Source: Kofleriaceae bacterium (GTDB taxonomy: Bacteria; Myxococcota_A; Polyangia; Haliangiales; Haliangiaceae). From it: 64,000 bases of DNA. Of this stretch, positions 1 through 34,691 are shown piece by piece. Both the position numbers and the translations under genes were made by a program. The notes under the pieces are model-generated. The model saw only the letters and a list, made by a program, of their open reading frames with translations. It was not told the DNA's origin and did not search any database. The stretch spans positions 1-64,000 of the forward strand of contig CBDCWZ010000010.1 in NCBI GenBank assembly GCA_965223575.1, written 5' to 3'. Each line of letters opens with the position of its first letter. Within the stretch, counting starts at the first letter, position 1.

Positions 1-35
1 AGTAGGCCTACTTCATGCATCGCGTACAGCGTCTT

Positions 36-73
36 ACGGGATTCGAACCCACGACCTCCAGCTTGGGAAGCAG
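36..73 (-). repeat. partial 3' fragment of tRNA-Gly (anticodon-stem 3' side, variable loop, T-arm); 34-nt direct repeat of tRNA-Gly at 11490-11564; att-like island boundary
   Basis: gggattcgaacccacgacctccagcttgggaagc is identical at 40-73 and 11502-11535. No matching 5' acceptor half lies upstream on the minus strand. Confidence 0.6.
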
Positions 74-930: not shown

Positions 931-1284
931 TTAGATCCAGAGGATGGCGCAGGCCAGGAGAAGGAAACCGAGGTAACTTGTTGCCGTTTTTTCATAGCGT
1001 GTTGCGATCCGTCGCCAGCGCTTGATGGTGTGAAAGAAGCATTCCACAAGATAACGCTGCTTGTACATCTCCTTGTCATGCCGGCGTTTCCTCTTCCTTG
1101 ATTTGCCTGATGGAATTACCGGTTTCAGGCCGCGCTCTTTGAGTTCACTAATGATTCGGTCCGAATCGTACGCTCCATCTGCGAGAACAGCTTCACCGTG
1201 AACATAGTCGATCAGTTCCTCGGCCACGGTGGAATCGTGCTGCTGTCCTGGGGTAACAAGGATATGGATAGGTCGTGCTTTCAT
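931..1284 (-). CDS. IS5-family transposase OrfB (DDE catalytic part), expressed by -1 frameshift from OrfA
   Basis: ADGAYDSDRI...YKQRYLVECFFHTIKRWRRIATRYEK, DDE_Tnp_1 C-terminal signature. Confidence 0.8.
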   Translation of the reverse strand: MKARPIHILVTPGQQHDSTVAEELIDYVHGEAVLADGAYDSDRIISELKERGLKPVIPSGKSRKRKRRHDKEMYKQRYLVECFFHTIKRWRRIATRYEKTATSYLGFLLLACAILWI

Positions 1285-1331
1285 GTCGACCGCAACATGG
1301 ATCTTCGTGGAGAAACCGCCCCTTGAGCGAC

Positions 1332-1673
1332 CTATTTCGTTTTTTTTGGACCGCCCTTTCCACCCGAAGCATCCTGATGAGTGCGAACAACGGAACCATC
1401 TAGGATCGCACCGATCTCATCATCGTTCAGGCACAAGGCGCGAAATATGTCACGCCAACGGTCCTTGTTCGCCCAGCGCCAGAATCGATTGTACACAGTC
1501 TTCCACGGACCAAATCGCTCAGGAAGATCTCTCCACGGTGCACCCGTTTTTCCAATCCAGTGCACTGCGTTGATAAAACTTCGGTCTCCCCTTTTCGACG
1601 TTTGACCGTGTGGGGGCGGAAGGAGTCCCTCTATCTTGTTCCACTGTTCATCACTGAGTTCGTGGCGCCTCAT
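1332..1673 (-). CDS. IS5-family transposase OrfA (DUF4096-type N-terminal DNA-binding part)
   Basis: MRRHELSDEQWNKIEGLLPP...GAPWRDLPERFGPWKTVYNRFWRW, typical IS427-group OrfA. Confidence 0.8.
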   Translation of the reverse strand: MRRHELSDEQWNKIEGLLPPPHGQTSKRGDRSFINAVHWIGKTGAPWRDLPERFGPWKTVYNRFWRWANKDRWRDIFRALCLNDDEIGAILDGSVVRTHQDASGGKGGPKKTK

Positions 1674-2257: not shown

Positions 2258-2732
2258 TCGACGGGTCGCCGCCTGTGAAGCGAACGCTGGCGCTGACAAC
2301 GGGGGCGCGGACTGGGACGAGGACGGGAACAACACTGACCACACGTACTACGACCCCAATGTACTTTGAGTTCGTGCAGCGTGGCGGCGACGCGCATTGG
2401 GTCTGACTATTTGCCGCGCACCAACAGTATTTGCTGTCGTCAAGAACTATTCTTTGCTATAATCGTTTTCACGAACGAGACGAACAATGACTCGCATGTT
2501 TGACATAGCCGCGACACAACCAGCGCCGAGAAAACATCTCGAGCGGCAGGGTACGTGCGCGCGCTTTAGCGATTCCGGGTTATCAGCCAGGCCAGTAGAA
2601 AGTTCGCGTATTTATCTCGCCGGCAACCTGATCTGGAATCCAGAAAGTGGGGCGGCTATGTCATGAAGCTAGTCAAATAGCACCGAGACACAGCCGTCCC
2701 AGGAAAACCTCGGACGGCTTTTTCGTGTTTCG

Positions 2733-2874
2733 GGGGGCACTCCACGGGTTGGTTGCCGCGGCTGTAAACCGCTTGCACGAGGGTTAACTAGGGTCCTTCG
2801 GACCCGTTGCCAGGGCCGAAAAATTCCATTGCATGGAATTTGTTCACCAACCTGGTCGAGTCCTTCTGCCCCCA
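2733..2874 (+). tRNA. tRNA-like, anticodon GTA (Tyr) with class-I (short) variable loop, interrupted in T-loop by 71-nt B-family element (2786-2856)
   Basis: acceptor gggggca/tgccccc; anticodon loop ctgtaaa; spliced T-arm gaggg-ttcgagt-ccttc is perfect; D-arm atypical. Confidence 0.45.
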
Positions 2875-2984
2875 CGACGGGAGACGTGCGCCCAGAAAAT
2901 GGCGCACACGAAAAACAATGACAGCGAAGCGAAAGGAAAAACGATGACGATGACAAAACGAAAACGGATGTGCGGACAACTTCT

Positions 2985-3126
2985 GCCTCCGTGACGCAAC
3001 GGTAGCGTAACCGACTTTTAATCGGAAAGTTGGGGGTTAACTAGGATGCTTCGCATCCGTTGACGCCACGGTATAAATCCAGCGAACTGGATTTATACCG
3101 TAAGGCGGACGATTCCCTCCGGGGCA
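2985..3126 (+). tRNA. tRNA-Lys(TTT) interrupted in T-loop by 71-nt A-family element (3039-3109)
   Basis: acceptor gcctccg, D-arm acgc-aacggta-gcgt, anticodon loop cttttaa; GGTT|[insert]|CGATTCC restores ggggg-ttcgatt-ccctc; 6/7 acceptor pairs. Confidence 0.55.
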
Positions 3127-3226
3127 CGACCGCGTTGCTGAAGATTTTGCAGAGCGTAGTGGACGCAGTCCACGGAGCTGCAAAAGTTCAGGCGCGTTAA
3201 CGGTCCTGTAGGGACCCAGTTAATCA
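3126..3226 (+). repeat. B-family structured spacer (forward orientation, variant hairpin), directly follows tRNA-Lys 3' end and precedes tRNA-Gln
   Basis: CGCGTTGCTGAAG…hairpins…GGTCCTGTAGGGACCCAGTTAATC; other forward copies at 3300-3371, ~3925-4030, 5343-5410, 5690-5788 begin right after tRNA discriminator bases and end in CCTAGTTAAC(C). Confidence 0.6.
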
Positions 3227-3227
3227 T

Positions 3228-3298
3228 TCGGAGATCGTCTAACGGTAGGACGACTGGCTCTGGACCAGTAAATCGGGGTTCGAATCCCTGTCTCCGAC
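3228..3298 (+). tRNA. tRNA-Gln(CTG)
   Basis: acceptor tcggaga/tctccga; anticodon loop ctctgga; T-arm cgggg-ttcgaat-ccctg; no encoded CCA. Confidence 0.7.
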
Positions 3299-3504
3299 CG
3301 CGTTGCTGAACAAATTCAACGAAGTGGAATTTTTCAGCCGCGATAACGGGTCCGAAGGACCCTAGTTAACCAGAACGAAACTGCGGTGTTCGCGACACGA
3401 GTGCCTTGAGTGGCCAGGGTGAACGACATCATCGGTGGATTCGCGATCTTTGACAACTGAATAGCGACGACGACAACGCGGGGCGTTTCCCGACGCCCCA
3501 TTTC

Positions 3505-3576
3505 CCACTTTGGCGTAGGTGGTCCGCGCGCCGGTCTGAAGAGCCGGAGGACCTGGTTCGATTCCAGGAGGGTGGG
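3505..3576 (+). tRNA. tRNA-like, possibly Phe(GAA); weak D-arm
   Basis: T-arm cctgg-ttcgatt-ccagg perfect; acceptor ccacttt/agggtgg with 2 GU; anticodon loop ctgaaga. Confidence 0.35.
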
Positions 3577-3749
3577 ACTTTTGCGGGTTCGTGGTGAAAC
3601 AGGATCATACCGGGTTCTTACCCCGTGAGTGAACTGCGCGCGGCCGAAGGCCGTGCTCGTTACCGCGGTTGAAAAATTCCAGTTTGTACTGGAATTTGTT
3701 CAACAACGCGGTGAGCGTGCAAATCGTTCCGGACCCACTACTCGCGTTT

Positions 3750-3893
3750 GCCCCTGGAAGCATCTGGGCGAGGCTAGCCGGCTGTCTACCGGCCGAGGAG
3801 GGTTAACTAGGATGCTCCGCATCCGTTGACGCCACTGTACAAATCCAGCGAACTGGATTTGTACAGTAAGGCGGACGATTCCCTTCAGGGGCG
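3750..3893 (+). tRNA. tRNA-Asp(GTC)-like interrupted in T-loop by 71-nt A-family element (3805-3875)
   Basis: acceptor gcccctg/caggggc perfect; anticodon stem gccgg/ccggc, loop ctgtcta (position 37 = T, unusual); spliced T-arm gaggg-ttcgatt-ccctt. Confidence 0.5.
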
Positions 3894-4042
3894 CTTTGGA
3901 AGCGCAAGCCAACTGGCGATGGCACCCGATTCGACCGGGTTGCTAAACTTTTGCGAAGCAGAGCGGATGTTCGTCCGCGGAGCTGCAACAAGTTTAGACG
4001 CGGTGACGGGTCCGAAGGACCCTAGTCAACTCGGGGCAGGTT

Positions 4043-4117
4043 AACTGCGCGCGCCTTCGGCGTGCTCGTTAACGCCGCTGTACAACTCCAGTTGCTGGAT
4101 TTGTACAGCAAGGCGGA
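4043..4117 (+). repeat. A-family variant element followed by an orphan tRNA 3' half (T-arm + acceptor 3')
   Basis: GGTT|AACTGCGCGCGCCTTCGGCGTGC…AAGGCGGA|CAACTCC restores gcagg-ttcaact-cctgt + cgcttcc; no 5' half upstream (occupied by a B-family copy). Confidence 0.45.
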
Positions 4118-4227
4118 CAACTCCTGTCGCTTCCGCCGATGGAAGGTAATCAGGCTGCGGAGCCTGGCCCGGCTGCTACCCGGTGCGCGCCAACAGCGTC
4201 TGGCTCGACTCCAGTGCCTTCCGCAAT

Positions 4228-4302
4228 GGCCCGGTCGTCTAATGGTCAGGACACGAGGCTTTCAATCTCGGAATCGGAGTTCGATTCTCCGTCGGGTCAC
4301 CA
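4228..4302 (+). tRNA. tRNA-Glu(TTC), CCA encoded
   Basis: close match to canonical bacterial tRNA-Glu (TCGTCTA..GGTCAGGACAC…CTTTCAA…); acceptor ggcccgg/tcgggtc; T-arm cggag-ttcgatt-ctccg. Confidence 0.8.
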
Positions 4303-4303
4303 C

Positions 4304-4375
4304 GGGCTGATAGTGATAGTGGGAACACGCTGCTTTCGCACGGCAGAAAGCCGGGTTCGAATCCCGGTCGGTCCA
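4304..4375 (+). tRNA. tRNA-Ala(CGC)-like
   Basis: acceptor gggctga/tcggtcc (GU pairs); anticodon loop ttcgcac; T-arm ccggg-ttcgaat-cccgg; begins 1 nt after preceding CCA. Confidence 0.5.
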
Positions 4376-4391
4376 CTTTAGCTCCTTCAAT

Positions 4392-4467
4392 GGGCACGCA
4401 TGTACCAAGGGGGCGAGCTGGCCTTGCAAGCCGGCTGTGGTCGGTTCGATTCCGACCGTGTCCACCA
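4392..4467 (+). tRNA. tRNA-Ala(TGC), CCA encoded
   Basis: acceptor gggcacg/cgtgtcc; anticodon stem ctggc/gccgg, loop cttgcaa; T-arm gtcgg-ttcgatt-ccgac; D-arm atypical. Confidence 0.55.
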
Positions 4468-4528
4468 TCCAATACCAGGTGTAAGTCAGCGGCAGACGGC
4501 ATCGTTTGGGACGATGCAGACGGAGGTT

Positions 4529-4599
4529 AACTAGGATGCTCCGCATCCGTTGACGCCACTGTACAAATCCAGCGAACTGGATTTGTACAGTAAGGCGGA
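4529..4599 (+). repeat. 71-nt A-family element inserted in T-loop of a tRNA-Pro(TGG)-like pseudo-tRNA (about 4470-4623)
   Basis: flanks GTT|…|CGATTCC restore ggagg-ttcgatt-cctcc followed by agggggc-a-CCA; anticodon loop tttggga; 5' acceptor does not pair, so pseudo-tRNA. Confidence 0.5.
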
Positions 4600-4634
4600 C
4601 GATTCCTCCAGGGGGCACCACACGCATCGATCTT

Positions 4635-4708
4635 CCGCCGGTAGTTCAACGGGAGAACTGTCGCCTGATAAGCGGCCAATGGTGGTTCGATTCCACCCTG
4701 GCGGACCA
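4635..4708 (+). tRNA. tRNA-Ile(GAT), CCA encoded
   Basis: acceptor ccgccgg/ctggcgg; D-arm gttc-aacggga-gaac; anticodon loop ctgataa; T-arm ggtgg-ttcgatt-ccacc. Confidence 0.8.
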
Positions 4709-4709
4709 T

Positions 4710-4784
4710 GGTGATCGTAGCTCAAAGGTAGAGCACTCGGCTGTGACCCGAGCGGTGGGAGTTCGATTCTCCTCGATCACCCCA
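4710..4784 (+). tRNA. tRNA-His(GTG) with encoded G-1, CCA encoded
   Basis: G-1 + gtgatcg/cgatcac, discriminator C; D-arm gctc-aaaggta-gagc; anticodon loop ctgtgac. Confidence 0.8.
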
Positions 4785-4796
4785 ACTTCCTTTTCA

Positions 4797-4870
4797 GCGG
4801 GCTTGGCGTAACAGCAGCGTATCAGGCTTCCAACCTGAGGGTACGGGTGCAATTCCCGTAGCCCGCACCA
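4797..4870 (+). tRNA. tRNA-Gly(TCC), CCA encoded
   Basis: acceptor gcgggct/agcccgc; anticodon stem tcagg/cctga, loop cttccaa; T-loop tgcaatt. Confidence 0.7.
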
Positions 4871-4872
4871 AC

Positions 4873-4943
4873 GCCTTCGTAGCACAGGGGCAGTGCACTG
4901 GTTTCGTACTCCAGGGACGTGGGTTCGATTCCCGCCGAAGGCT
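4873..4943 (+). tRNA. tRNA-Thr(CGT)
   Basis: acceptor gccttcg/cgaaggc; D-arm gcac-aggggca-gtgc; anticodon loop ttcgtac; T-arm gtggg-ttcgatt-cccgc. Confidence 0.7.
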
Positions 4944-4947
4944 CCGC

Positions 4948-5018
4948 TTCGGTGTCGTCCAACGGCAGGACAGCGGTCTTTGAAGCCGACGACCGGGGTT
5001 CGAATCCCTGCACCGGAA
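4948..5018 (+). tRNA. tRNA-Gln(TTG)
   Basis: acceptor ttcggtg/caccgga; D-arm like the Gln(CTG) copy; anticodon loop ctttgaa; T-arm cgggg-ttcgaat-ccctg. Confidence 0.6.
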
Positions 5019-5022
5019 CTGC

Positions 5023-5096
5023 GCCTCTCGTAGCCATCTGGGAAGGCACCTGCCTTGTAAGCAGGCTAGGCGGTTCGATTCCGACGAGGGGCTCCA
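5023..5096 (+). tRNA. tRNA-Thr(TGT), CCA encoded
   Basis: acceptor gcctctc/gaggggc; D-arm agcc-atctggga-aggc; anticodon stem cctgc/gcagg, loop cttgtaa. Confidence 0.7.
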
Positions 5097-5101
5097 TCTA
5101 T

Positions 5102-5173
5102 TCCTCCGTGGCTTAACGGTAGAGCACCCGGCTGTTAACCGGGGATGTGCAGGTTCGACTCCTGCCGGGGAGC
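5102..5173 (+). tRNA. tRNA-Asn(GTT)
   Basis: anticodon stem cccgg/ccggg, loop ctgttaa; T-arm gcagg-ttcgact-cctgc; acceptor tcctccg/cggggag with one mismatch. Confidence 0.6.
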
Positions 5174-5176
5174 TAT

Positions 5177-5329
5177 GTCGCTATCGTCCAGTTGGCGAGG
5201 ACGCCGGTCTCTCAAGCCGGAAACGGCGGGTTAACTAGGATGCTTCGCATCCGTTGACGCCGCTGAACAAATCCAGCGAACTGGATTTGTTCAGCAAGGC
5301 GGGCAAGTCCCCCTCCCCTAGCGACGCCA
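5177..5329 (+). tRNA. tRNA-Glu(CTC)-like interrupted by 71-nt A-family element (5233-5303); 3' T-arm degenerate; CCA encoded
   Basis: acceptor gtcgcta … tagcgac-g-cca; anticodon stem ccggt/gccgg, loop ctctcaa; T-stem ggcgg then GTT|insert|CAAGTCC plus a C-rich tail. Confidence 0.4.
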
Positions 5330-5543
5330 TGCGATCGTCGACCGCGTTGCTGAACAAATTCAACGAAGTGGAATTTTTCAGCCGCGGTAACGAGCACGCC
5401 GAAGGCGCGCGCAGTTAACAAGAGCTATTGAGGCCAAGGGGTTGACTAGGGTCCTTCGGACCCGTCACCGCGGCTGTAATCCTCCAGTAAACTGGATGAT
5501 TACAGCAACGCGGTCGATTCCCACCGTCGGCTCCAATCACTAT

Positions 5544-5615
5544 GCCTCCACCCAAGGATGGGACGCGGCGCTACGAACGCTGTCGATGAAGGTTCGAGTC
5601 CTTCTGGAGGTGCCA
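5544..5615 (+). tRNA. tRNA-Arg(ACG), CCA encoded; short D-arm
   Basis: acceptor gcctcca/tggaggt; anticodon stem cggcg/cgctg, loop ctacgaa; T-arm gaagg-ttcgagt-ccttc. Confidence 0.65.
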
Positions 5616-5617
5616 AT

Positions 5618-5687
5618 ACCACCGCACGTGGACTCGTGGCCTGGGGTTCCGAACCTTGGTGAAGCAGTTCGATTCTGCTCGGTGGAC
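5618..5687 (+). tRNA. tRNA-Arg(CCG)-like
   Basis: T-arm agcag-ttcgatt-ctgct; acceptor (a)ccaccg/cggtgga; anticodon loop ttccgaa with a GU-rich stem. Confidence 0.4.
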
Positions 5688-5793
5688 CGGGTTGCTGTAG
5701 TTATGCAAAGCGGAGCGGACGGAAGGTCCGCGAAGTTGCAGAACTACAGGCGCGATAACGGGTCGAGCGTAGCGAAACCCTAGTTAACTTCAT

Positions 5794-5860
5794 GGGCGAC
5801 GATCTGGGATCAGCTTGGGCTCCAAATCCGAGCAGCGGGGTTCAATTCCTCGGTCGCCTG
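5794..5860 (+). tRNA. degenerate tRNA-like (67 nt), anticodon unclear
   Basis: acceptor gggcgac/gtcgcct and T-arm cgggg-ttcaatt-cctcg, but no canonical anticodon arm. Confidence 0.25.
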
Positions 5861-5870
5861 CAACTCTTGC

Positions 5871-5943
5871 AGTCGCGTAGCCCAACGGAAGAGGCGGCAG
5901 GCTTAGAACCTGTGTGTTGGGGGTTCGAATCCTCCCGCGACTA
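5871..5943 (+). tRNA. tRNA-like, class-I structure with anticodon TAG (Leu codon CUA) - noncanonical
   Basis: acceptor agtcgcg/cgcgact; anticodon stem gcagg/cctgt, loop cttagaa; T-arm ggggg-ttcgaat-cctcc; 5-nt variable loop. Confidence 0.45.
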
Positions 5944-5946
5944 CTG

Positions 5947-6091
5947 CGGTACGTAGCCCAATCGGCAGAGGCATCCAGTTTAAGCCCGGACCAGTGAGGG
6001 TTAACTAGGATGCTTCGCATCCGTTGACGCCACTGTACAAATCCAGCGAACTGGATTTGTACAGTAAGGCGGACGACTCCCTCCGTACCGA
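5947..6091 (+). tRNA. tRNA-like (apparent anticodon TAA, class-I) interrupted in T-loop by 71-nt A-family element (6003-6073)
   Basis: acceptor cggtacg/cgtaccg perfect; spliced T-arm gaggg-ttcgact-ccctc perfect; anticodon stem has one mismatch. Confidence 0.45.
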
Positions 6092-6098
6092 CCTTCGA

Positions 6099-6243
6099 GC
6101 CAACGTAGCCCAACTGGCAGAGGCACCGGATTCAAATCGCGGACAGTATCGGTTAACTAGGATGCTCTGCATCCGTTAACGCCGCCGAACAAATCCAGCG
6201 AACTGGATTTGTTCAGCAAGGCGGACGACTCCGATCGTTGGCA
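6099..6243 (+). tRNA. tRNA-like (anticodon region ttcaaat, possibly CAA) interrupted in T-loop by 71-nt A-family element (6155-6225)
   Basis: acceptor gccaacg/cgttggc perfect; spliced T-arm atcgg-ttcgact-ccgat perfect; anticodon stem poorly paired. Confidence 0.4.
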
Positions 6244-6249
6244 CAAAAC

Positions 6250-6408
6250 GCGGACGTGGTGGAACGGGATACACGCAACGTTGAGAGCGTTGTGAGCCAC
6301 GTGCTCAATGCCGGTTAACTCGGGGCCTTTGGACCCGTTCTCGGGGCTGAAAAATTCCACGATGTGGAATTTGTTCACCAACCCGGTCGAATCCGGCCGT
6401 CCGCACCA
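6250..6408 (+). tRNA. tRNA-Leu(GAG), class II, interrupted in T-loop by 71-nt B-family element (6317-6387); CCA encoded
   Basis: acceptor gcggacg/cgtccgc perfect; anticodon stem caacg/cgttg, loop ttgagag; long variable arm gagc-cacgt-gctc; spliced T-arm gccgg-ttcgaat-ccggc perfect. Confidence 0.65.
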
Positions 6409-6441
6409 TCCAGAAACATCAACCCTCAACGAAAGGCAGCC

Positions 6442-6972
6442 ATGACGGCTCAAACACTGTTGTTGTCCGCGGGCTATGAGCCGATCAAGGTCGTCTCTTG
6501 GCAACGCGCGATAACCTTACTCACGCTCGGCAAGATCGAAGTTCTGGAAGAGTATGATCGCGAAGTTCGATCCCCGACCATTGCGTTTAAGATGCCTGCG
6601 GTCGTTCGACTTTTGCAGGTACTCAAGCGCAACAAGAAGGCAGTCAAGTTCTCGCGCATCAACATCTATGCGCGGGATAAGTACCGGTGCCAATACTGCT
6701 GTCGAAAGCTACCCATCGCCGAGTTGACCTACGACCACGTCGTTCCGCGCGCGAAGGGTGGCAAGACGATTTGGCAGAACATCGTGACCGCATGCGAAAC
6801 GTGCAACAGCCGCAAGGGGAACCGGACGCCGGAGCAAGCGCACATGGCGTTGCTCAACCGGCCAACACGGCCGACTTGGGTCCCGGTCATGACGCTTCGG
6901 GTAAACCGCAACACGGCGCCCGATGCCTGGAGAGACTATCTCTACTGGACCGGTGAACTGCAAAGCGGCTGA
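6442..6972 (+). CDS. HNH endonuclease (small McrA-like HNH nuclease) embedded in the tRNA array
   Basis: CQYCCRKLP…LTYDHVVPRAKGG…CETCNSRKGN (HNH His-metal finger); RBS GAAAGG before the ATG at 6442. Confidence 0.8.
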   Translation: MTAQTLLLSAGYEPIKVVSWQRAITLLTLGKIEVLEEYDREVRSPTIAFKMPAVVRLLQVLKRNKKAVKFSRINIYARDKYRCQYCCRKLPIAELTYDHVVPRAKGGKTIWQNIVTACETCNSRKGNRTPEQAHMALLNRPTRPTWVPVMTLRVNRNTAPDAWRDYLYWTGELQSG

Positions 6973-7029
6973 CCGCACACCGAATGCCACGGGCCACAGA
7001 TCGGATCCGCGAGCCCGCCGGCATTCACT

Positions 7030-7117
7030 GGAGAGACAAACCGATTGGCGACGGTGCTCGGCTTGAACCCGAGTGAGCGTAACTGCCTTAGGGGTTCGAC
7101 TCCCCTTCTCTCCGCCA
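7030..7117 (+). tRNA. tRNA-Ser(TGA), class II, CCA encoded
   Basis: acceptor ggagaga/tctctcc; anticodon stem ctcgg/ccgag, loop cttgaac; long variable arm; T-arm agggg-ttcgact-cccct. Confidence 0.8.
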
Positions 7118-7118
7118 T

Positions 7119-7203
7119 GGAAGGCATCCGAATGGTGAGGACCCCGGTTGGAAGCCGGGCGGGCGACAACGTTGCCTTGAGGGTTCGAGTCCCTCGCCTT
7201 CCG
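7119..7203 (+). tRNA. tRNA-Ser(GGA), class II
   Basis: acceptor ggaaggc/gccttcc; anticodon stem cccgg/ccggg, loop ttggaag; long variable arm; T-arm gaggg-ttcgagt-ccctc. Confidence 0.75.
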
Positions 7204-7207
7204 CTGC

Positions 7208-7276
7208 GCCTCGCGGGACGGATCCCAGCTGGGTCTTCTAAACCCGGCGCTCCAGGTTCAATTCCTGGGCGAGGTA
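7208..7276 (+). tRNA. tRNA-Arg(TCT)
   Basis: acceptor gcctcgc/gcgaggt; anticodon stem tgggt/acccg, loop cttctaa; T-arm ccagg-ttcaatt-cctgg; short D-arm. Confidence 0.55.
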
Positions 7277-7277
7277 C

Positions 7278-7345
7278 GGCTCCTCTGATGGACCAGTCCC
7301 GGCTCTTCTAAAGCTGGAGAGAGCGTTCGATTCGCTCAGGAGCCA
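7278..7345 (+). tRNA. tRNA-Arg(TCT), second copy
   Basis: acceptor ggctcct/aggagcc; anticodon stem cggct/agctg, loop cttctaa; T-arm gagcg-ttcgatt-cgctc. Confidence 0.55.
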
Positions 7346-7659: not shown

Positions 7660-8850
7660 ATGCTCTGCGTGTTTTGCAATTCTCTGTTGCCTTCGAAGAA
7701 GCCCGAACATGTAGTGAGCGCCTTCCTCGGTGGAAGACGAAGCTCAAGGAATCTGCTCTGTGATCTCCACAATGAAACGTTCGGCGGCTCATTTGAACGC
7801 CACGCGGCCAAAGGACTAGCCTCTCTGGCGAACATGCTTGGTGTCAGGAGCGGTCGCCGGCGAGCACCGCCACAAATTCAGGGCATTAAGGGACCAGACA
7901 AGTCTGAGACTTACACGCTCTTGCCAGGAGCAAAGATCATTCAACCCAAAGCGAAGGTCGAGATCGACGAGTCGGAGAACGGGCAGGTTCGAATACGCAT
8001 CAGAGCTGATGCAACCAAAGGCCATCAGATCCATAAGATTCTGGAGAGTTTCGCAGCCAAGTACGGAACCACGCTAGACGAAACGATTTTAGCCCAAGCC
8101 AACGTTACACAGATTCAACTCCCATCGCCCATTGAACTTGATATCACCCTAGGGCCGGACCTGCTGCGTTCACTCTCAAAAATCTCGTTACTACTTCTCG
8201 CTACCAAGACCGGTACAGTCGCGGTTCGAGGCTCCGCCTTTGAGGATGTTCGCAGGTTCATCGAGATCGGCGGACCAAGCAGTGAGTTCATTCGGATGAA
8301 TTCGGCAGCAAAGCTACCAACCATAGTAGGTCTGCACGAACCAGCAGTAGCCGTGCATCGTTTTTTGGTGTACGCAACTCGCGAATTCGGCTGTTTTGCG
8401 ACAATCGAACTGTATGGATGTTTTCTATTCACAGGCCTTCTTTCCAAGGAGTGGAACTCTGAAAATATTAGCGTTGGCCACTCGGTCAACCCCATCACCG
8501 AGCAACACTTCGTAGCTTATAATTTCAGTTCATCACCAATTTCGATTGACCAATTTGCTACTATCAAAGGCGATCAGGTAGCCACCAATGGCCGGCTGGA
8601 CAATCTGTTGAGCTTCGCAATAAGGCGTATGCAACAGCAAGCTCTTGAAGAAATGGTCGCACGATGTATTAATGAAAGCATTGGTAAGAGCGAGGATGTC
8701 ATTACTGAGGAAATGATCGCCAAATTGACCATGTCCTTTGCCGAGCAGTTCGTTGCTACGCAGAAGGGATACGTTCTAGAGCGACAACTCACCATTGACG
8801 ACGTTATTCCTCGAACTCCGACAGGAGAGCCCGACGGCCCTGATGAGTGA
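7660..8850 (+). CDS. HNH_5-type nuclease domain protein (N-terminal HNH, uncharacterised C-terminal ~300 aa); defence-like standalone gene
   Basis: CVFCNSLLP…PEHVVSAFLGG…LCDLHNETFGG fits the C.YC…EH.IP.SLGG HNH_5 pattern. Confidence 0.6.
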   Translation: MLCVFCNSLLPSKKPEHVVSAFLGGRRSSRNLLCDLHNETFGGSFERHAAKGLASLANMLGVRSGRRRAPPQIQGIKGPDKSETYTLLPGAKIIQPKAKVEIDESENGQVRIRIRADATKGHQIHKILESFAAKYGTTLDETILAQANVTQIQLPSPIELDITLGPDLLRSLSKISLLLLATKTGTVAVRGSAFEDVRRFIEIGGPSSEFIRMNSAAKLPTIVGLHEPAVAVHRFLVYATREFGCFATIELYGCFLFTGLLSKEWNSENISVGHSVNPITEQHFVAYNFSSSPISIDQFATIKGDQVATNGRLDNLLSFAIRRMQQQALEEMVARCINESIGKSEDVITEEMIAKLTMSFAEQFVATQKGYVLERQLTIDDVIPRTPTGEPDGPDE

Positions 8851-9251: not shown

Positions 9252-9746
9252 CTACGCAGCGAAATCTTCTTCAACTACCCAGCCTTTTTTAGCTGAACGG
9301 AACCCAAGCCTGAGTGGTATTGCTTCTTCTTCGATTTCTTGCAGTCGATCGATAGGATATTGCTGAATTGGGTCAAAGGTGGTTGCTGCGAGTCGAAGAA
9401 GTCTATCTGCAGTCGAGTTCATTTTTTGCGATCCCGACTCCCATCGCGAAACCGTCTCACGCTCGACGCCAAAGTGTCGGGCGAAGTCAGTCCCAGACCA
9501 ACCGAGTGATTTTCTGAGGAATCGGATTTCCTCCGGTGTGAGACGAGCTGATTTGGTACTAATGGCATAGACGATGACCCGATGAAGTTCCTCGACTTTG
9601 GGAATCCCAACAAACGATTCACCGCACGCACCACAACGCTTTACATTCACACCAATCAAGGTGACGCGAACTCCTTGGGCGTCGTACAGGTGATTTTCTC
9701 TCGCTGACTTGAGTTGCCCACCACAATGTATGCACTTCATGTCCAT
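9252..9746 (-). CDS. MqsA/YgiT-like antitoxin (N-terminal CxxC…CxxC zinc finger + C-terminal XRE-type HTH)
   Basis: MDMKCIHCGG…CGACGESF then …RFLRKSLGWSGTDFARHFGVERETVSRWESG. Confidence 0.7.
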   Translation of the reverse strand: MDMKCIHCGGQLKSARENHLYDAQGVRVTLIGVNVKRCGACGESFVGIPKVEELHRVIVYAISTKSARLTPEEIRFLRKSLGWSGTDFARHFGVERETVSRWESGSQKMNSTADRLLRLAATTFDPIQQYPIDRLQEIEEEAIPLRLGFRSAKKGWVVEEDFAA

Positions 9747-9755
9747 CTCCTTGAT

Positions 9756-10076
9756 TCAGCGGCCCATACGCCATGCTGTAACGGCCACAAGCTCCAGCTC
9801 ACTCCAGAAAGCAACCACAACAGTGATGCGCTGCGTTCGGACCTGATATCTCCAGGAACCATTTTCCCATTCGCCCTCGCCGACAACGCCGCCACGCATG
9901 ACGTTGCTACAATCAATTTCCGACAAGTTGTCGTTCGCCATTTCCTGCCGTGCATGCTTTGAGTAATAGACGGTTCCATTGGTGATGATTTCTCGGATGA
10001 GCCGTTTTGCGTCCGAACTACTGAGTGGCTCATCCATATGTGATCTTATATCACATATTGACTTATAGTCAAACAC
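9756..10076 (-). CDS. DUF4258-family (RelE/ParE-fold) toxin partner of the MqsA-like antitoxin
   Basis: …YYSKHARQEMANDNLSEIDC…; 106 aa; immediately upstream in the same operon, 9-nt intergenic. Confidence 0.55.
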   Translation of the reverse strand: MFDYKSICDIRSHMDEPLSSSDAKRLIREIITNGTVYYSKHARQEMANDNLSEIDCSNVMRGGVVGEGEWENGSWRYQVRTQRITVVVAFWSELELVAVTAWRMGR

Positions 10077-10724: not shown

Positions 10725-11273
10725 TTGGGAACAAAGGGGGGCATTTCTATGGTTCGTAAAGTTCTCATTGGACTGGCAGGATTAGCTGGTGTACTTGCCA
10801 CAGTTGCCTGGTTTACAACTTCGTCTCCCAATCAAAACGAGCTGCGAATGATCAATATTAAGAACGCCAAAAATTATTTGGGAGTGTTAGTCGGCGGGCA
10901 GCCCAGCGATGAGGAGCTGAGGCATGCCGCAAAGTCCGGCTATCAGACGATTATTAACTTGCGTACGGCTTCTGAACCGGGGAGCGCTGAAGAAAAAGTA
11001 CTCGCGGAAAAGCTCGGCCTTGTTTACGTTTCGATCCCGACAGCAGGGGAGGCCGGATTGACTCGGGAAAATGCAACAGCTTTGCACGAGGCACTCAAGG
11101 CGGCATCAGGGCCAGTCATGCTTCATTGCGGTAGTGGAAACCGCGTCGGTGGTCTGATTGCTTTGCGCGCACACTATTTGTTAGGAATGCCCGCCAACAC
11201 TGCGCTAGAGGAAGGCAAGAAAGCGGGTCTCACAGGACTCGAACCCGCTGTGACACGCATCCTCGGCCTGTAA
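10725..11273 (+). CDS. membrane-anchored phosphatase-like protein (TIGR01244/DUF442 'beta-lactamase hydrolase-like' dual-specificity phosphatase fold)
   Basis: HCGSGNRVGG (CX5R P-loop); N-terminal hydrophobic segment; start may be the ATG at 10749. Confidence 0.6.
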   Translation: MGTKGGISMVRKVLIGLAGLAGVLATVAWFTTSSPNQNELRMINIKNAKNYLGVLVGGQPSDEELRHAAKSGYQTIINLRTASEPGSAEEKVLAEKLGLVYVSIPTAGEAGLTRENATALHEALKAASGPVMLHCGSGNRVGGLIALRAHYLLGMPANTALEEGKKAGLTGLEPAVTRILGL

Positions 11274-11489: not shown

Positions 11490-11567
<78 letters not shown>

Positions 11568-22951: not shown

Positions 22952-25900
22952 GTGACCGGTCGGCGGCGAATCGGCAAAACTACTTTGATTCAGAAGGCCC
23001 TCGGGTCTGAACGGAAACACGGGGTTTTTTACATCCAAATTCCCGACTCAGGTCCTGCTGGTGTTCTGTCTGGAATTGCAGACGCTATGGATACTTTTGC
23101 GATTAATGAGGACGCCTTTCCTCGGCCAACGAATCTATCGCAGCTCGCCAGCATAGTGGGCCAACTGGCGCGCGCGGGCTATATTGTAGCGCTCGATGAG
23201 TTTCAGTATTTCAATCGTGCGAGACTGAAGGACTTCTGCTCACTGCTTCAGAGCGAGGTCGACAGACTATCGTCAGATGCCGAGAAGTATGCGCCCAATG
23301 CGCCCCATGTAGCATGAATCATCTGGCGGCAGTATTGTCGCTACATGGAACCATGCGGTTCAACAAACTCGATCGGTTTATTCCTGATCGACAATCTTCT
23401 CAGCGAGCCATTGAGCAGGGGTAGCGGTTCTCAGCTGGTTGGCGGAGATGCCGGCGGCGATTCTGTGAAAGATGTCTCTGAGATACTCGTAGGGGTTGGC
23501 GCCGACAAGGGTGCAGTTGAGCACAGCAGTCATGATGGTGGCGTAGCGTTGTCCTGCTTCGCGAGAGCCGACGAAGAGTGCATTTTTGCGAACCAGCGTA
23601 ACGATCCGGAGCGCACGCTCGACATGGGCATTGGAGATCGGCACCGAACCGAACTGCAAAAACAGGCCCAGGGCTTCGCGCTGCCGAGTCCAGTAGGTAA
23701 GCGCTTTGGCCAAGGGGGTACGAGATTTCCTCTGTTGGGCAAACTTGGCAACATAAGCATCGATGTCCGCAATCATGGCAACAGAATGTTGTTGACGAAG
23801 CGCGAGGCGTTGTTCGTCAGTCATCTGGTTGTCCTGGGCGTAACGCTCCACCTGATACAGTCTTGCCATCAAATCGATGACTGGTGCAGCTCGTTTGTCA
23901 CCACTGTCGAGCGCATGAACAAATTTTCTACGCGAATGGTCCATACAGCCAGCCTGCCGTGGTGGGGCCAATCCTCGATAGAGTTTTTTGATTCCCGCAT
24001 ATCCATCATGTTGCGTGTTGCCCTGAAATTCGGCGAGAAGTTTACAAGGGTAAATCCCTTTCCAGTCCGGCGAAAATTCACAATACGCGGTCCGCCCGCG
24101 ATCGCCCAAATAGATCCAAAATCGCCCACGCTGAATGTTTTTGGGATGGGCAGGATTTTGCATTGGCATGGGGGTATCGTCAAAGCTGATCAGTGCGCTC
24201 TTGAGTAGGTCTGTCTTGGCGCCTGGGTTAAAAACGGATAACAGCTCGGCCCCTTGCGCATACCACTGTCCCAATGTTTTGTCAGATAGCTCGATCCCGC
24301 GTCGCAGCAATGCGGTGCTTTGACGATACAGAGGCATCGCGTCGCAGACTTTGCTCGTCATGATTTGCGCCATCAGGCTGGGGGTTACCACGGAGCCTGG
24401 GATCAGTTTGGGCGTTAAATTCCCGCTGACAATGCCGTCTTTGCAGTCACGACACGCGTATTTATGAGCGCGTTCTTCGCGGACGAAGGCATGTTGCTGG
24501 TTCAAATTCTAGGTGCACTGTTTTGTCGAAACCAATGTGGTCCTTTTCGCGATTGCAGCCATTACAGTGGCGTTCCGAATCAGGGGGATGTTTGTCGTCG
24601 ATCACTCGCTCGAGATTGTCTAAATTTGTGGTCCGCTTCTTACGCTTTTTTCTCTTGTGAGCAGGAGTCTTCGATCGTTTCCTTTGGTAAGTCCGAAGGC
24701 CCCCTCGGCCACCATGTATTCTAGGAGCGCGAGTGACAACTGAGCCGGGGAGATTTTTTCTGAGCTCGGACGATATTTCGACGCAATCTGCCTCCGCATA
24801 CCATCGATTTCTTGTTTCATGCGCTCAATGATCGGCATGGCTTCGGCAAGAACTTCTTGGCCGGCTTCACGCTCCTTGTCCGTTGCCAGATTGGCAGTGA
24901 CCGAAACAAGAAATTCGTGAATCGATGCCGTATCGATAGAGCCTTCCCACGTCCCCACACCTCCTTGTATCACGCGTGTCCGACATTCTCACCTTTACGA
25001 AACTCTTGATTGCGATTGTTTTTCCGCGAAGAAGTTTCGCCAAATCCTCTGCTTTGATCTCGATCGTGTTCCTGATCTTGTTTGGGAATCGGAAATGTCC
25101 CAGACTCAAGTCGCTTCGCCAAAATGCAATATCCCTGCTGATCAAAAAACAAAATCTTGAGCAGATGACGCCGACGATTGGCAAATACGTATAGATGGCC
25201 GGTTTCTGGATCTGCGTCCAGCGCTTCACGAACAACCTTCGCAAGACCATCAAACTGTTTCCTCATGTCAACAGGATTCACTGCCACAAAAACGCGGACC
25301 TTCGTCGGTAGCGTTAACATGAGCCATCCAGAGAGTTTGCCCACTCGCAGACATTCTCGCCGATCCGACTTGGAACAAAACAATAAACGCCTGCCGTTTT
25401 TGAGAACGAGCTCGTAGCGGGGTTCTCCGCTCAAAGCAATCTCGTCACGAACCTTTACTTCAACAAATTCTGTCTGGCCAGATTGTTTTTCACGCCTCTG
25501 CCAACTCCATAACGCAGACGCCGAGATCCCATGATGTTTGCCAAATTCTACCGCAGACCGATTGCTCTTCTGCCATGCGCGGAGAATCTTTCGCTGCTCT
25601 GCACGACTTCTTTGAATCCGTTTTTGCATTCCATGCGGTTTAACTCGACAGGCTGCTGCGCGAAACATGGGGCTCACGGGGCGCATACGCCGAGAACGTC
25701 TCTGGGGGGACTGCTCGTTCTGGGATCCATTCACACCGAGATGTCCACGCTTCTAGAAGATCGGAGCGCTCCGTTATTCAATCGCACCACCGACGAAATC
25801 GCGCTATCTCACCTGGACGTTGGTTCCCTAATCAAATTGCTGGACGCGCATACTGATTCGACGCCAGAGCGACTGTTATTTCTTTGGAATATGTTCGAGG

Positions 25901-33315: not shown

Positions 33316-33546
33316 TTATGGCCGAAATCCTGCAATTTTTCTCAGTGGACAGGGTGCTCGCCGACGCGCCCGCTTCGCGATGAGGCCCAAGCATTTCCGG
33401 CAAGTCACGGCTCGAAGATCGTCGGTTGCAATACCCTCGACCTCAGCTCGATGGGCAGCCTCGAGATCCCTGGGATTACACAACACCATGTCTTCTGCGT
33501 TGAGAGCATGTAGATCGCACGTTGTTCTCCTGTCGGCCATGTTCAT
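33316..33546 (-). CDS. small hypothetical protein translationally coupled to rtcB (ATGA overlap)
   Basis: 76-aa ORF starting 4 nt before the rtcB stop. Confidence 0.35.
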   Translation of the reverse strand: MNMADRRTTCDLHALNAEDMVLCNPRDLEAAHRAEVEGIATDDLRAVTCRKCLGLIAKRARRRAPCPLRKIAGFRP

Positions 33547-34691
33547 GTCCCCTTGTAGACCAGCACTGGTTCCAAACGCCGGACGATGCGTGTAAGCGTT
33601 TTCTGTGCCCGCATTACTTTGTTGATGTTCTTATAGGCCCCGGGAGCCTCGTCTCGCAGACGGCCCGCGATGCGGTGATCGAACCAGATGCCAGTCATCT
33701 GCTCGACCAGTTTATTAATGCTGATTGCTCTTCGAGCCTCGGTTCGGCTGAGGCAGCGACCAGCACCATGAGAGCTTGAACACAAAGACTCGACATCGCC
33801 CCGGCCCTCAACGTGAAAGCTGGCACTACCCATTGATCCGGGGATAATCCCCGGTTCTCGTAAACGGGCTGAGATAGCCCCTTTGCGGTGAACCCACAGC
33901 AGTCGATCTTGGTGTTTCTCCTGTCTAACGAAGTTGTGATGACAGTCAAAGTACGACTCCCACCGTGCAACGCTGCCGGTGACGTCTTCCAACCTGCGTG
34001 CGACGACCTCGGCCATGCGCCGTCGACTCAGCCGCGCATAATCAAGAGCCCACTTGAGATCGTGCAAATAGGCTTGCCCAAGCGACGAATTCGCAGGCAT
34101 CGAGCGTAGACCTCCGTCGGCACCACCATGATGTTCACGGATACCCTGGCCGATCCCACGGGATCCGCTGTGCACCATCAACCACAGCGCGTTCTCGGCA
34201 TCGCGTTGAAATTCGATGAAGTGATTTCCGCGCCCCAGTGTTGCGAACTGCGTCCTAGCGATTTTGGTTTTCTTCTTTTCCAGAGACGACACCGACAGTT
34301 TTCGACTGGCTAGCTCGTCGGGAAGCCTTGCGTTGACTGATCTGTGACTCGACGTAGGCACTTGATTCGCCAGCATCGTGAGCACGCGAGCCGCCATAAT
34401 TCGGTCGTTTAGAAGGTTCGCGTCAGTATCAAATCGCAGCGCCGACATCCCACAACCAATATCGCCTCCCACGGCATCGGGAAAGAGATGGCTGTGCGTT
34501 GCGACGACGGTACCAACGCACACCGCTTTGGCAAGATGTACATCGGGCATCACTGCGACCACAGCGACGTCCTGCAACTCCGCGATCCTATCCAGCGCCC
34601 TGCGAACGTCCGCTGGTAGCGCGTCATGGGTCCACGTTCGGACAGGCATGCGGCTACTCATTGCCAACCTCCTGTTCCCAATTCCCGTCAC
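33543..34691 (-). CDS. rtcB: RNA 3'-phosphate/2',3'-cyclic phosphate ligase RtcB
   Basis: DVHLAKAVCVGTVVATH…GGDIGCGM…NHFIEFQ…MVHSGSRGIGQ…CHHNFV…SSSHGAGR. Confidence 0.9.
   Translation of the reverse strand: MTGIGNRRLAMSSRMPVRTWTHDALPADVRRALDRIAELQDVAVVAVMPDVHLAKAVCVGTVVATHSHLFPDAVGGDIGCGMSALRFDTDANLLNDRIMAARVLTMLANQVPTSSHRSVNARLPDELASRKLSVSSLEKKKTKIARTQFATLGRGNHFIEFQRDAENALWLMVHSGSRGIGQGIREHHGGADGGLRSMPANSSLGQAYLHDLKWALDYARLSRRRMAEVVARRLEDVTGSVARWESYFDCHHNFVRQEKHQDRLLWVHRKGAISARLREPGIIPGSMGSASFHVEGRGDVESLCSSSHGAGRCLSRTEARRAISINKLVEQMTGIWFDHRIAGRLRDEAPGAYKNINKVMRAQKTLTRIVRRLEPVLVYKGT

Follow-up and report, generated by a model that had tools for sequence, protein, structure and literature searches.

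What are the short inserts that split the T-loops of several tRNA genes in one tRNA array of a Myxococcota bacterium, and is the interruption undone in the RNA? The array lies near the start of the 64,000-nt stretch analysed here (the window; Kofleriaceae bacterium, contig CBDCWZ010000010.1, positions 1 to 64,000 of the forward strand), and an initial annotation of that stretch had likened the inserts to either a tRNA intron or a miniature mobile element aimed at T-loops. Comparison with homologous arrays indicated that they are copies of a recently active mobile DNA element, which has spread recently through a horizontally acquired tRNA array. The 71-nt units are probably members of a family of miniature, non-autonomous elements that is moved as single-stranded DNA (ssDNA) in trans, with insertion most likely inactivating the tRNA.

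Filled and empty insertion sites in related arrays

Related arrays were reached through the HNH protein encoded within the array of the window (three contigs, one metagenome assembly; contigs L023 and L024 are among them). L023, whose HNH protein is 96% identical to that of the window, carries approximately 21 element copies; the homologous array of L024 (HNH 86% identical) contains none, and with a covariance model of the element that of L027 likewise gave zero copies. Base-by-base comparison found three genes that are interrupted in L023 but intact in the window, namely tRNA-Thr(CGT), an Arg(CCG)-like gene and Ala(CGC), and one with the opposite pattern, Leu(GAG); Tyr, Lys(TTT), Asp, Ser(CGA), Leu(TAA) and Leu(CAA) are all intact in L024. 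The junctions of these filled and empty pairs were exact (GGGTT/CGATTCC when empty versus GGGTT, 71 nt and CGATTCC when filled; here and below a slash within a sequence marks the insertion point), their flanks were identical or near-identical, and there was no target-site duplication. Together with the copy-free homologous array, this argues strongly for a mobile DNA element that was active recently, as the initial annotation had supposed from uninterrupted tRNA genes in the same array.

The family also occurs in two other Myxococcota metagenome-assembled genomes (MAGs; L002 and L014 from one, L016 from the other), in the chromosome contig L026, in the phage contig L001, which has a portal gene, and in several metagenome contigs; blastn searches with the elements found nothing similar among annotated phages and plasmids. 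An explanation by local duplication, gene conversion or assembly artefact, with no independent mobility, would suit near-identical copies packed within 4 kb, but is already refuted by copies that share their insertion motif throughout but occupy many different tRNA genes, whose flanks are unrelated, by the exact filled and empty junctions, and by the presence of the family in four other genomes or MAGs, a phage contig and several metagenomes.

Two further kinds of T-loop insert were seen outside the window. A tRNA-Met gene of L016 (2265-2334) has a short derivative of approximately 26 nt in its T-loop that keeps only the first hairpin of the element and is probably an internal deletion or a footprint. 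The phage contig has two more inserts at T-loop position 55/56 (3040-3115 and approximately 4095-4160), each with two hairpins and no sequence similarity to the element family; insertion in T-loops may be a wider phenomenon that involves several families. The split-T-arm finder used also yielded artefacts spanning two adjacent tRNAs, which were removed by eye.

Element copies in the tRNA array

On the plus strand of region 2700-7300 ARAGORN called 16 intact tRNAs, and Rfam matches there were to tRNAs only. The element family is represented in the window by 16 copies, 11 sense and five reversed, all between 2786 and 6387 (Table 1), with lengths of 69-100 nt and most commonly 71 nt; the covariance model recovered exactly these 16 and zero elsewhere in the 64 kb. 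They divide into an A-type of six near-identical 71-nt inserts, diverged B- and C-types, and longer variants. Ten of the sense copies (S1, S2 and S4 to S11) are placed exactly between T55 and C56 of T-loops, with GGTT on the 5' side and C(G or A)AxxCC on the 3' side, nine being 71 nt long and one 75 nt. The motif GGTTAACTAGG, with up to 2 mismatches allowed, occurred 23 times against 6.6 expected, and a degenerate 27-nt left-end pattern occurred 10 times against 0 expected.

The initial annotation had counted at least six copies, and these, the A-type inserts, are all real; the B- and C-types, S3 and the five reversed copies had been missed. The flanks that it described, GGTT followed by CGATTCC or CGACTCC, hold as GGTT...CGAxxCC for five of the six A-type copies, the copy at 5233 being followed by CAAGTCC. 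The T-stems restored by excision, said to be fully paired, are perfect in three of the six, with one G.U pair each in Lys and Asp and one mismatch in Glu-CTC. Its tRNA labels were right for Lys(TTT) and Asp(GTC), but the 'Pro-like' gene is a recombinant hybrid and in the 'Glu-CTC-like' gene the T-stem carries 5 additional nt on its 3' side. An insertion point described as constant is indeed shared by the ten copies at 55/56, but not by the sense copy 3632-3712, which lies outside the T-loop.

With all 16 copies removed in silico, ARAGORN called 22 tRNAs in the array instead of 16. Removal of single inserts led ARAGORN to call Tyr(GTA), Lys(TTT), Asp(GTC), Leu(TAA), Leu(CAA) and Leu(GAG), so a canonical, callable tRNA resulted from excision for 6 of the 10 T-loop copies, the other four carrying additional lesions. 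Under relaxed thresholds most of the leftover array segments resolved as atypical tRNA-like genes. The element thus hides interrupted tRNA genes from standard tools, which missed 6-10 in this array, and such genes are therefore likely to be under-counted in Myxococcota genomes and phages.

Table 1. Positions of the element copies, the array and two protein-coding genes in the window (S, sense; R, reversed)
Feature	Position	Strand	Remarks
tRNA array, approximately 33 tRNA or tRNA-like genes	2733-7277	+	ARAGORN, Rfam; hosts every element copy of the window
S1, B-type, 71 nt; T-loop 55/56 of tRNA-Tyr(GTA), gene 2733-2875	2786-2856	+	orthologue empty in L024
S2, A-type, 71 nt; T-loop of tRNA-Lys(TTT), gene 2984-3127	3039-3109	+	empty in L024
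R1, long variant, 93 nt; immediately past 3' end of tRNA-Lys(TTT)	3129-3221	-	covariance model
R2, 71 nt; 3' end of tRNA-Gln(CTG)	3297-3367	-	minus strand reads GGTT/CGGAGA
S3, C-type, 81 nt; Lys(CTT)-like gene 3585-3737	3632-3712	+	just 5' of T-stem, outside T-loop; flanks GAGTG and GAGCG
S4, A-type, 71 nt; T-loop of tRNA-Asp(GTC), gene 3750-3894	3805-3875	+	empty in L024
R3, 94 nt; anticodon loop (TTCG/AAC) of Ser(CGA) remnant 3899-4140	3934-4027	-	orthologue uninterrupted in L023 and L024
S5, C-type, 75 nt; T-loop of Ser(CGA) remnant 3899-4140	4043-4117	+	remnant also without its 16-nt variable arm
S6, A-type, 71 nt; junction of hybrid of Pro-TGG 5' half and another tRNA 3' half	4529-4599	+	~900-bp deletion between two copies
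S7, A-type, 71 nt; T-loop of Glu(CTC)-like gene 5176-5329	5233-5303	+	
R4, C-type, 76 nt	5341-5416	-	minus strand reads TGTT/CGACGA
S8, B-type, 71 nt; T-arm-like fragment without complete tRNA body	5444-5514	+	
R5, long variant, 100 nt; immediately past 3' end of Arg(CCG)-like tRNA	5686-5785	-	
S9, A-type, 71 nt; T-loop of tRNA-Leu(TAA), gene 5947-6093	6003-6073	+	empty in L024
S10, A-type, 71 nt; T-loop of tRNA-Leu(CAA), gene 6099-6244	6155-6225	+	empty in L024
S11, B-type, 71 nt; T-loop of tRNA-Leu(GAG), gene 6250-6408	6317-6387	+	empty in L023, with one single-nucleotide difference in a flank
HNH endonuclease gene, 176 aa, embedded in array	6442-6972	+	conserved in all homologous arrays, with or without elements
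RtcB RNA ligase gene	33543-34691	-	27 kb from array; relevant to the intron hypothesis only

Five or six of the approximately eight reversed copies sit 13-34 nt upstream of a sense copy in a head-to-head arrangement (window 3934-4117 and 5341-5514; L023 7691-7852, 8625-8823 and 4691-4869; L025 6155-6351), which could be chance in a dense array, hopping to the opposite strand, or a composite unit. The tRNAs with the Leu anticodons TAG, TAA and CAA are of class I length (74-77 nt after excision), without the long variable arm expected for tRNA-Leu (window 5871-5944, 5947-6093 and 6099-6244; L024 7737-7969; L016 1853-2088); unlike these short Leu tRNAs of several arrays, Leu(GAG) is a normal class II tRNA.

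Fold of the element

The element folds as a closed dumbbell of two bulged hairpins, P1 and P2, which follow each other with no linker and leave the element ends side by side. P1 (e1-e23) consists of 3 bp (RAC pairing with GUY), an invariant UA bulge, 6 bp and a 3-nt loop; P2 (e24-e71) has a base of 4-6 bp, an invariant AA bulge on its 3' strand, approximately 15 bp and a 4-nt loop, and in the longer variants contains an extra inner hairpin. On 17 diverse copies, pairing held in 86% of cells, compared with 25-41% when the partners were slid; compensatory changes occurred in 14 of 30 pairs, 0 of 500 shuffles matched the observed values, and RNAalifold was concordant. Element base 1 covaries with the base following hairpin 1 (AAC...GUU versus GAC...GUC). 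Covariation therefore supports both hairpins of the conserved structure first proposed, although the UUCG loop ascribed to one of them is not a cUUCGg tetraloop but a 3-nt loop (UYC) closed by C-G.

Folding as ssDNA was strong for both strands (z of about -8.7 and -8.8), and a wobble-pair strand test on the stems gave 18 G.T against 33 A.C, with no excess of G.U over A.C, so that the structure is not assignable to RNA over DNA. In thermodynamic folds of the interrupted pre-tRNAs P2 formed every time, and the cloverleaf was kept unreliably. The right end (...AAGGCGGA or ...CGCGGT) is not the reverse complement of the left end (AACTAGG...), and the element thus has no terminal inverted repeats.

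The insertion target

Insertion is immediately 3' of GTT and before C(G), is precise, and has one orientation relative to the motif, the copy always being oriented as the strand that bears it. In the array cleaned of copies, GTT/CG was occupied at much the same rate within T-arms (8 of 25 sites) and outside them (3 of 8), and GTTCH at 2 of 9 in T-arms versus 1 of 14 elsewhere. The reversed copies are placed where the minus strand reads GTT/CG, including copies in the anticodon loops of tRNA-Arg(TCG) of L001 and of Ser(CGA) of the window, which resemble T-loops on the opposite strand (GGTT/CGAAGCC or AGTT/CGAATC on the minus strand), and in L020-L022 family members lie in non-tRNA DNA, after GGTT. 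Occupancy by motif, the reversed copies and the non-tRNA copies together indicate that what is recognised is a short DNA motif, GTT/CG(A), on either strand, and not the tRNA fold. The T-loop targeting first proposed is therefore in need of refinement. Almost every bacterial tRNA gene encodes GGTT/CGA at T54-T55/C56, so that a tRNA array offers one good target per gene.

The left flank was NGTT at approximately 35 of 40 sites, most commonly GGTT but also AGTT and TGTT, with GATT once; GTG was found in 5. In these GTG copies (L002 7410, 7268 and 6381; L014 1746; window 3632) the final T of the element is paired inside P2. Either exact excision of such a copy would leave G at T-loop position 55, or the insertion point in that subfamily is 54/55.

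Precise, duplication-free insertions would also be expected of homing, in which the HNH endonuclease of the array would cut empty GGTT/CGA sites, repair would copy the insert in from a filled gene, and the insert would then block re-cutting (collaborative homing). The HNH gene is embedded in every homologous array, and the gene immediately upstream of it in the window, L001 and L002 is an interrupted Leu tRNA gene. It is, however, just as present in the element-free arrays L024 and L027, the flanks of different tRNA genes share only approximately 4-7 nt, which is too little for templated repair, reversed and non-tRNA insertions would not be predicted, and an enzyme cutting GGTTCGA would attack all tRNA genes of the cell. 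We consider homing of this kind very unlikely. As the gene occurs in arrays with and without elements, HNH is on present evidence context and not part of the element, and it was rejected as the element's own enzyme.

Fate of the interrupted transcripts

If the element moves as DNA, its removal from the RNA is a separate matter, and it is here alone that a mobile tRNA intron would differ from the ssDNA element that we favour. Such an intron would spread at the DNA level, and in the transcript its dumbbell would be cut at U55/N and N/C56 by a protein endonuclease or an unrecognised ribozyme, the halves then being joined by RtcB. This explanation fits the DNA mobility, and we regard it as rather unlikely; excision at the RNA level, by whatever means, is given a similarly small chance. 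That the elements are the first bacterial tRNA introns other than self-splicing ribozymes, excised by a nuclease or a new small ribozyme and resealed by RtcB, is an attractive but doubtful proposition.

Several observations point towards an intron. Exact removal restores a canonical tRNA in the six T-loop cases described above, the interrupted isoacceptors (Tyr, Lys-TTT, Asp and three Leu) have no intact copy in the array, and the fold places U55 and C56 adjacent at a helix junction. RtcB is encoded in the window and in L023, where a complete rtcR-X-rtcB-rtcA operon abuts the array, and Ro60/Rsr and RlaP RNA-repair genes lie inside related arrays. The phage contig retains four interrupted tRNAs, and at least three unrelated two-hairpin sequence families occupy the same T-loop position. 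A precedent exists in archaea, where tRNA introns occur at 53/54, 56/57 and 59/60 and some have been transposed among tRNA genes as DNA (PMC4090602).

Against this, Rfam searches at the gathering threshold and at a permissive E<=5 (2700-6450) placed no ribozyme, intron or Y RNA family on the element, with tRNAs the only matches. Models of self-cleaving ribozymes (hammerhead, twister, pistol, hatchet, HDV-like and others) had no match in the same region at E<=5, and Intron_gpI had none at either threshold, an element of 69-100 nt being below the typical group I core (P3-P9, >=200 nt). Inspection of the junction sequences found no bulge-helix-bulge, and this motif was ruled out: AACUA, the first bases of the insert, cannot pair with CGAUU of the 3' exon for the central 4-bp helix, and both junctions are at helix ends, not in 3-nt bulges. 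RtcB genes are present in the window and L023, no EndA-like gene was seen, and the splicing endonuclease is not known from bacteria. The host is a Myxococcota bacterium, given that HflX of the window is closest to proteins of Enhygromyxa, Nannocystaceae and Polyangiaceae, and not an archaeon, where T-arm introns are ordinary. Reversed copies inside tRNA bodies persist though they are beyond any sense-specific removal from RNA, and interrupted genes bear extra lesions (a lost variable arm, a changed acceptor stem, a hybrid gene). Non-array tRNA genes are free of inserts, the stems have no excess of G.U over A.C, and occupancy tracks the DNA motif and not the tRNA context.

A second RNA-level explanation keeps the insert in the transcript as a functional extension of the T-loop, for example as a Ro60/Rsr ligand resembling Y RNA or as a decoy for tRNA-targeting toxins. 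The conserved secondary structure and the Ro60/Rsr genes within related arrays would suit it, and the GACT-type junction UUGACUAG (e.g. window 5440-5451) is identical to the 3' strand of the helix through which animal Y RNAs bind Ro60, with different pairing partners. Within the element, though, GAC pairs with GUC, unlike the Y RNA helix, and with the Rfam YrlA model at E<=5 no copy matched, the sole weak match lying elsewhere in the array (4680-4734, E=1.2). With the pairing different and no model match, a Y RNA or Ro60 ligand was rejected. As presence and absence also vary among near-identical arrays, and copies occur in both orientations and outside tRNA genes, a retained functional extension of any kind seems most improbable.

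Gene damage and neighbouring genes

Beyond interrupting genes, the copies recombine with one another and so delete the genes between them. The 'Pro-TGG' gene of the window is a fusion, made within the repeat, of the 5' half of Pro(TGG) of L023 and the 3' half of a gene approximately 900 bp downstream, with four tRNA genes lost between the two recombined copies. Further damage was seen in the doubly interrupted Ser(CGA) of the window, which has no variable arm, in the acceptor-stem changes of Lys(TTT), and in Leu(CAA) of L023, which has a second, reversed insert. The copies are thus already producing deletions and hybrid tRNA genes, which makes it possible to follow how a horizontally acquired tRNA array decays.

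The homologous arrays are accompanied by genes of RNA repair and quality control, namely Ro60/Rsr (TROVE and vWA) and two RlaP nucleotidyltransferases; the rtc genes of L023 are rtcR, a gene for a 721-aa protein of no assigned family, rtcB and rtcA. The RNA-repair loci are at L023 9051-15538, L001 4507-6075, L014 1897-3474 and 3769-5470, L027 1202-2794 and, in the window, at the RtcB gene. In L024 a gene for a large serine recombinase (2967-5084) separates tRNA-Tyr from tRNA-Lys, and in L023 such a gene is found at the array edge (1-1873), so that the array appears to be part of, or to adjoin, an integrative element.

The window contains several other features. An IS5-family transposase split in two open reading frames (ORFs; DUF4096 and DDE_Tnp_1) lies just upstream of the array (931-1673, minus strand) and an IS66 TnpB-like ORF lies at 24970-25734 (minus strand), neither being linked to the element. 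Downstream of the array are a gene for a 396-aa protein that weakly matches HNH_5 at its N-terminus and is missing from related arrays (7660-8850, plus strand), and an MqsA-like antitoxin gene paired with one for a DUF4258 protein (9252-10076, minus strand). A T-arm-like GGGTTCGAGTCC hairpin at approximately 11230-11260 (minus strand), near tRNA-Gly(CCC) (11490-11564, minus strand), and an incomplete tRNA 3' end at the edge of the window (approximately 30-60, minus strand) are both element-free, and may be attachment-site remnants.

Mobilisation and comparison with known systems

In the reading that we prefer, a trans-acting, structure-specific enzyme would move the element as ssDNA, the likely mode being a 'peel and paste' like that of IS200/IS605. 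Both ends would be cut and joined as a circle, the donor would be resealed, and the circle would re-insert 3' of the short target, with the dumbbell serving to bring the two cleavage points together. Copies might survive only in the array because insertion is tolerated there, and possibly because DNA becomes single-stranded in an array that is heavily transcribed and rich in hairpins. Interruption of the tRNA at its elbow tip would most likely inactivate it unless the insert were removed from the RNA.

Six points weigh against this account. Neither the window nor the approximately 115 kb of related sequence examined encodes a candidate enzyme, HUH/Y1 transposases included. P1 starts at the first nucleotide of the element and leaves no room for a guide between target and hairpin, where IS608 has a guide tetranucleotide between cleavage site and hairpin. 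P1 and P2 are unlike in sequence and length, and the exact 71-nt length is common to the A and B subfamilies despite their differing sequence, which would fit a constraint at the RNA level too. The left flank is GTG and not GTT in S3 and four copies of L002 and L014. Finally, GTTCG sites outside the array were occupied in 0 of 177 cases, and GGTTCGA sites in 0 of 16, a chromosomal tRNA-Gly among them, so the motif alone is an insufficient explanation; surviving copies could be confined to the array through selection, local hopping or single-strand exposure.

Whatever the enzyme, this is a very small element with exact, duplication-free and orientation-specific insertion at a motif of 5-7 nt and an unusual closed-dumbbell fold, which implies an enzyme that reads DNA shape and is of mechanistic, possibly biotechnological, interest. 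It is also a live bacterial case of short inserts spreading among tRNA genes as DNA, the process inferred for archaeal intron gain. If its RNA were processed as well, the element would count as a bacterial intron of a new kind, with which the 'transposon-to-intron' route could be tested directly; an intron would moreover imply a splicing role for the bacterial rtc 'RNA repair' system and tRNA introns arising from DNA transposons.

No earlier description of such a bacterial element was found in the literature, as the initial annotation had surmised, it has no Rfam family, and several known kinds of element were ruled out. A classical miniature inverted-repeat transposable element derived from a DDE transposon would have terminal inverted repeats and a target-site duplication, both of which the element lacks. 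The GTTC/ target of IS91-type elements does not fit insertion after GTT, and for an integron attC crossover (G/TTRRRY) the expected TT after the element is missing.

Among archaeal introns at non-canonical tRNA positions, large-scale transposition is described in Thermoproteales (Fujishima et al. 2010, as reviewed in PMC4090602). Like those introns, the element consists of short, similar inserts in many tRNA genes, T-arms included, which spread at the DNA level, as has been deduced for the introns, and whose exact removal restores the tRNA; unlike them, it has a bacterial host and no bulge-helix-bulge for EndA to cut, and its copies are also reversed and outside tRNA genes. The T-loop insertions hitherto known from bacteria are group I introns of tmRNA genes, which occupy four subsites and average approximately 290-410 nt (PMC11915505). 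With these and with the group I introns of tRNA anticodon loops the element shares mobile insertion in the most conserved loop of a tRNA-like bacterial gene, but they are self-splicing with a conserved catalytic core, and a 71-nt element matches no intron model. IStrons, which combine an IS605-type transposon with a group I intron, are DNA transposons that insert at a short motif without duplication, and the damage to the host gene can be undone in the RNA (bioRxiv 10.1101/2023.11.20.567912). Insertion of the element is similar at the DNA level, being at a short specific motif with no duplication, but IStrons run to kilobases and include a ribozyme and protein genes, neither of which the element has.

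Integron attC sites and REP/RAYT systems resemble the element in being folded ssDNA substrates that are read by structure, with extrahelical bases setting the strand and the cleavage position while the stem sequences drift; the element differs from them in having no TT after it, no GTAG head of a REP, and no integrase or RAYT gene nearby, and in not being an extragenic palindrome. The IS200/IS605 family is characterised by the lack of inverted repeats and of target duplication, by a left end that inserts 3' to a specific target of 4-5 nt, and by single-strand intermediates (PMC5027513). The element resembles IS200/IS605 and its non-autonomous forms, PATEs, all moved by the HUH/Y1 transposase TnpA, in having neither terminal inverted repeats nor a target-site duplication. 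As in IS200/IS605, its ends are asymmetric, each with an imperfect hairpin with extrahelical bases (here the UA bulge of P1 and the AA bulge of P2), and its left end follows a specific short target with fixed orientation; we liken it to the small non-autonomous copies of that family that are mobilised in trans. It departs from the family in that no TnpA is encoded in the window or the related loci examined, in that its left hairpin abuts the cleavage site and its hairpins are dissimilar, and in its GTT/C(G) target and tRNA T-loop niche, which are unreported for IS200/IS605. To our knowledge it is smaller than any PATE. We class it as belonging to a known kind, the small hairpin-bearing non-autonomous elements without target duplication, and as new in its architecture, its target and its niche.

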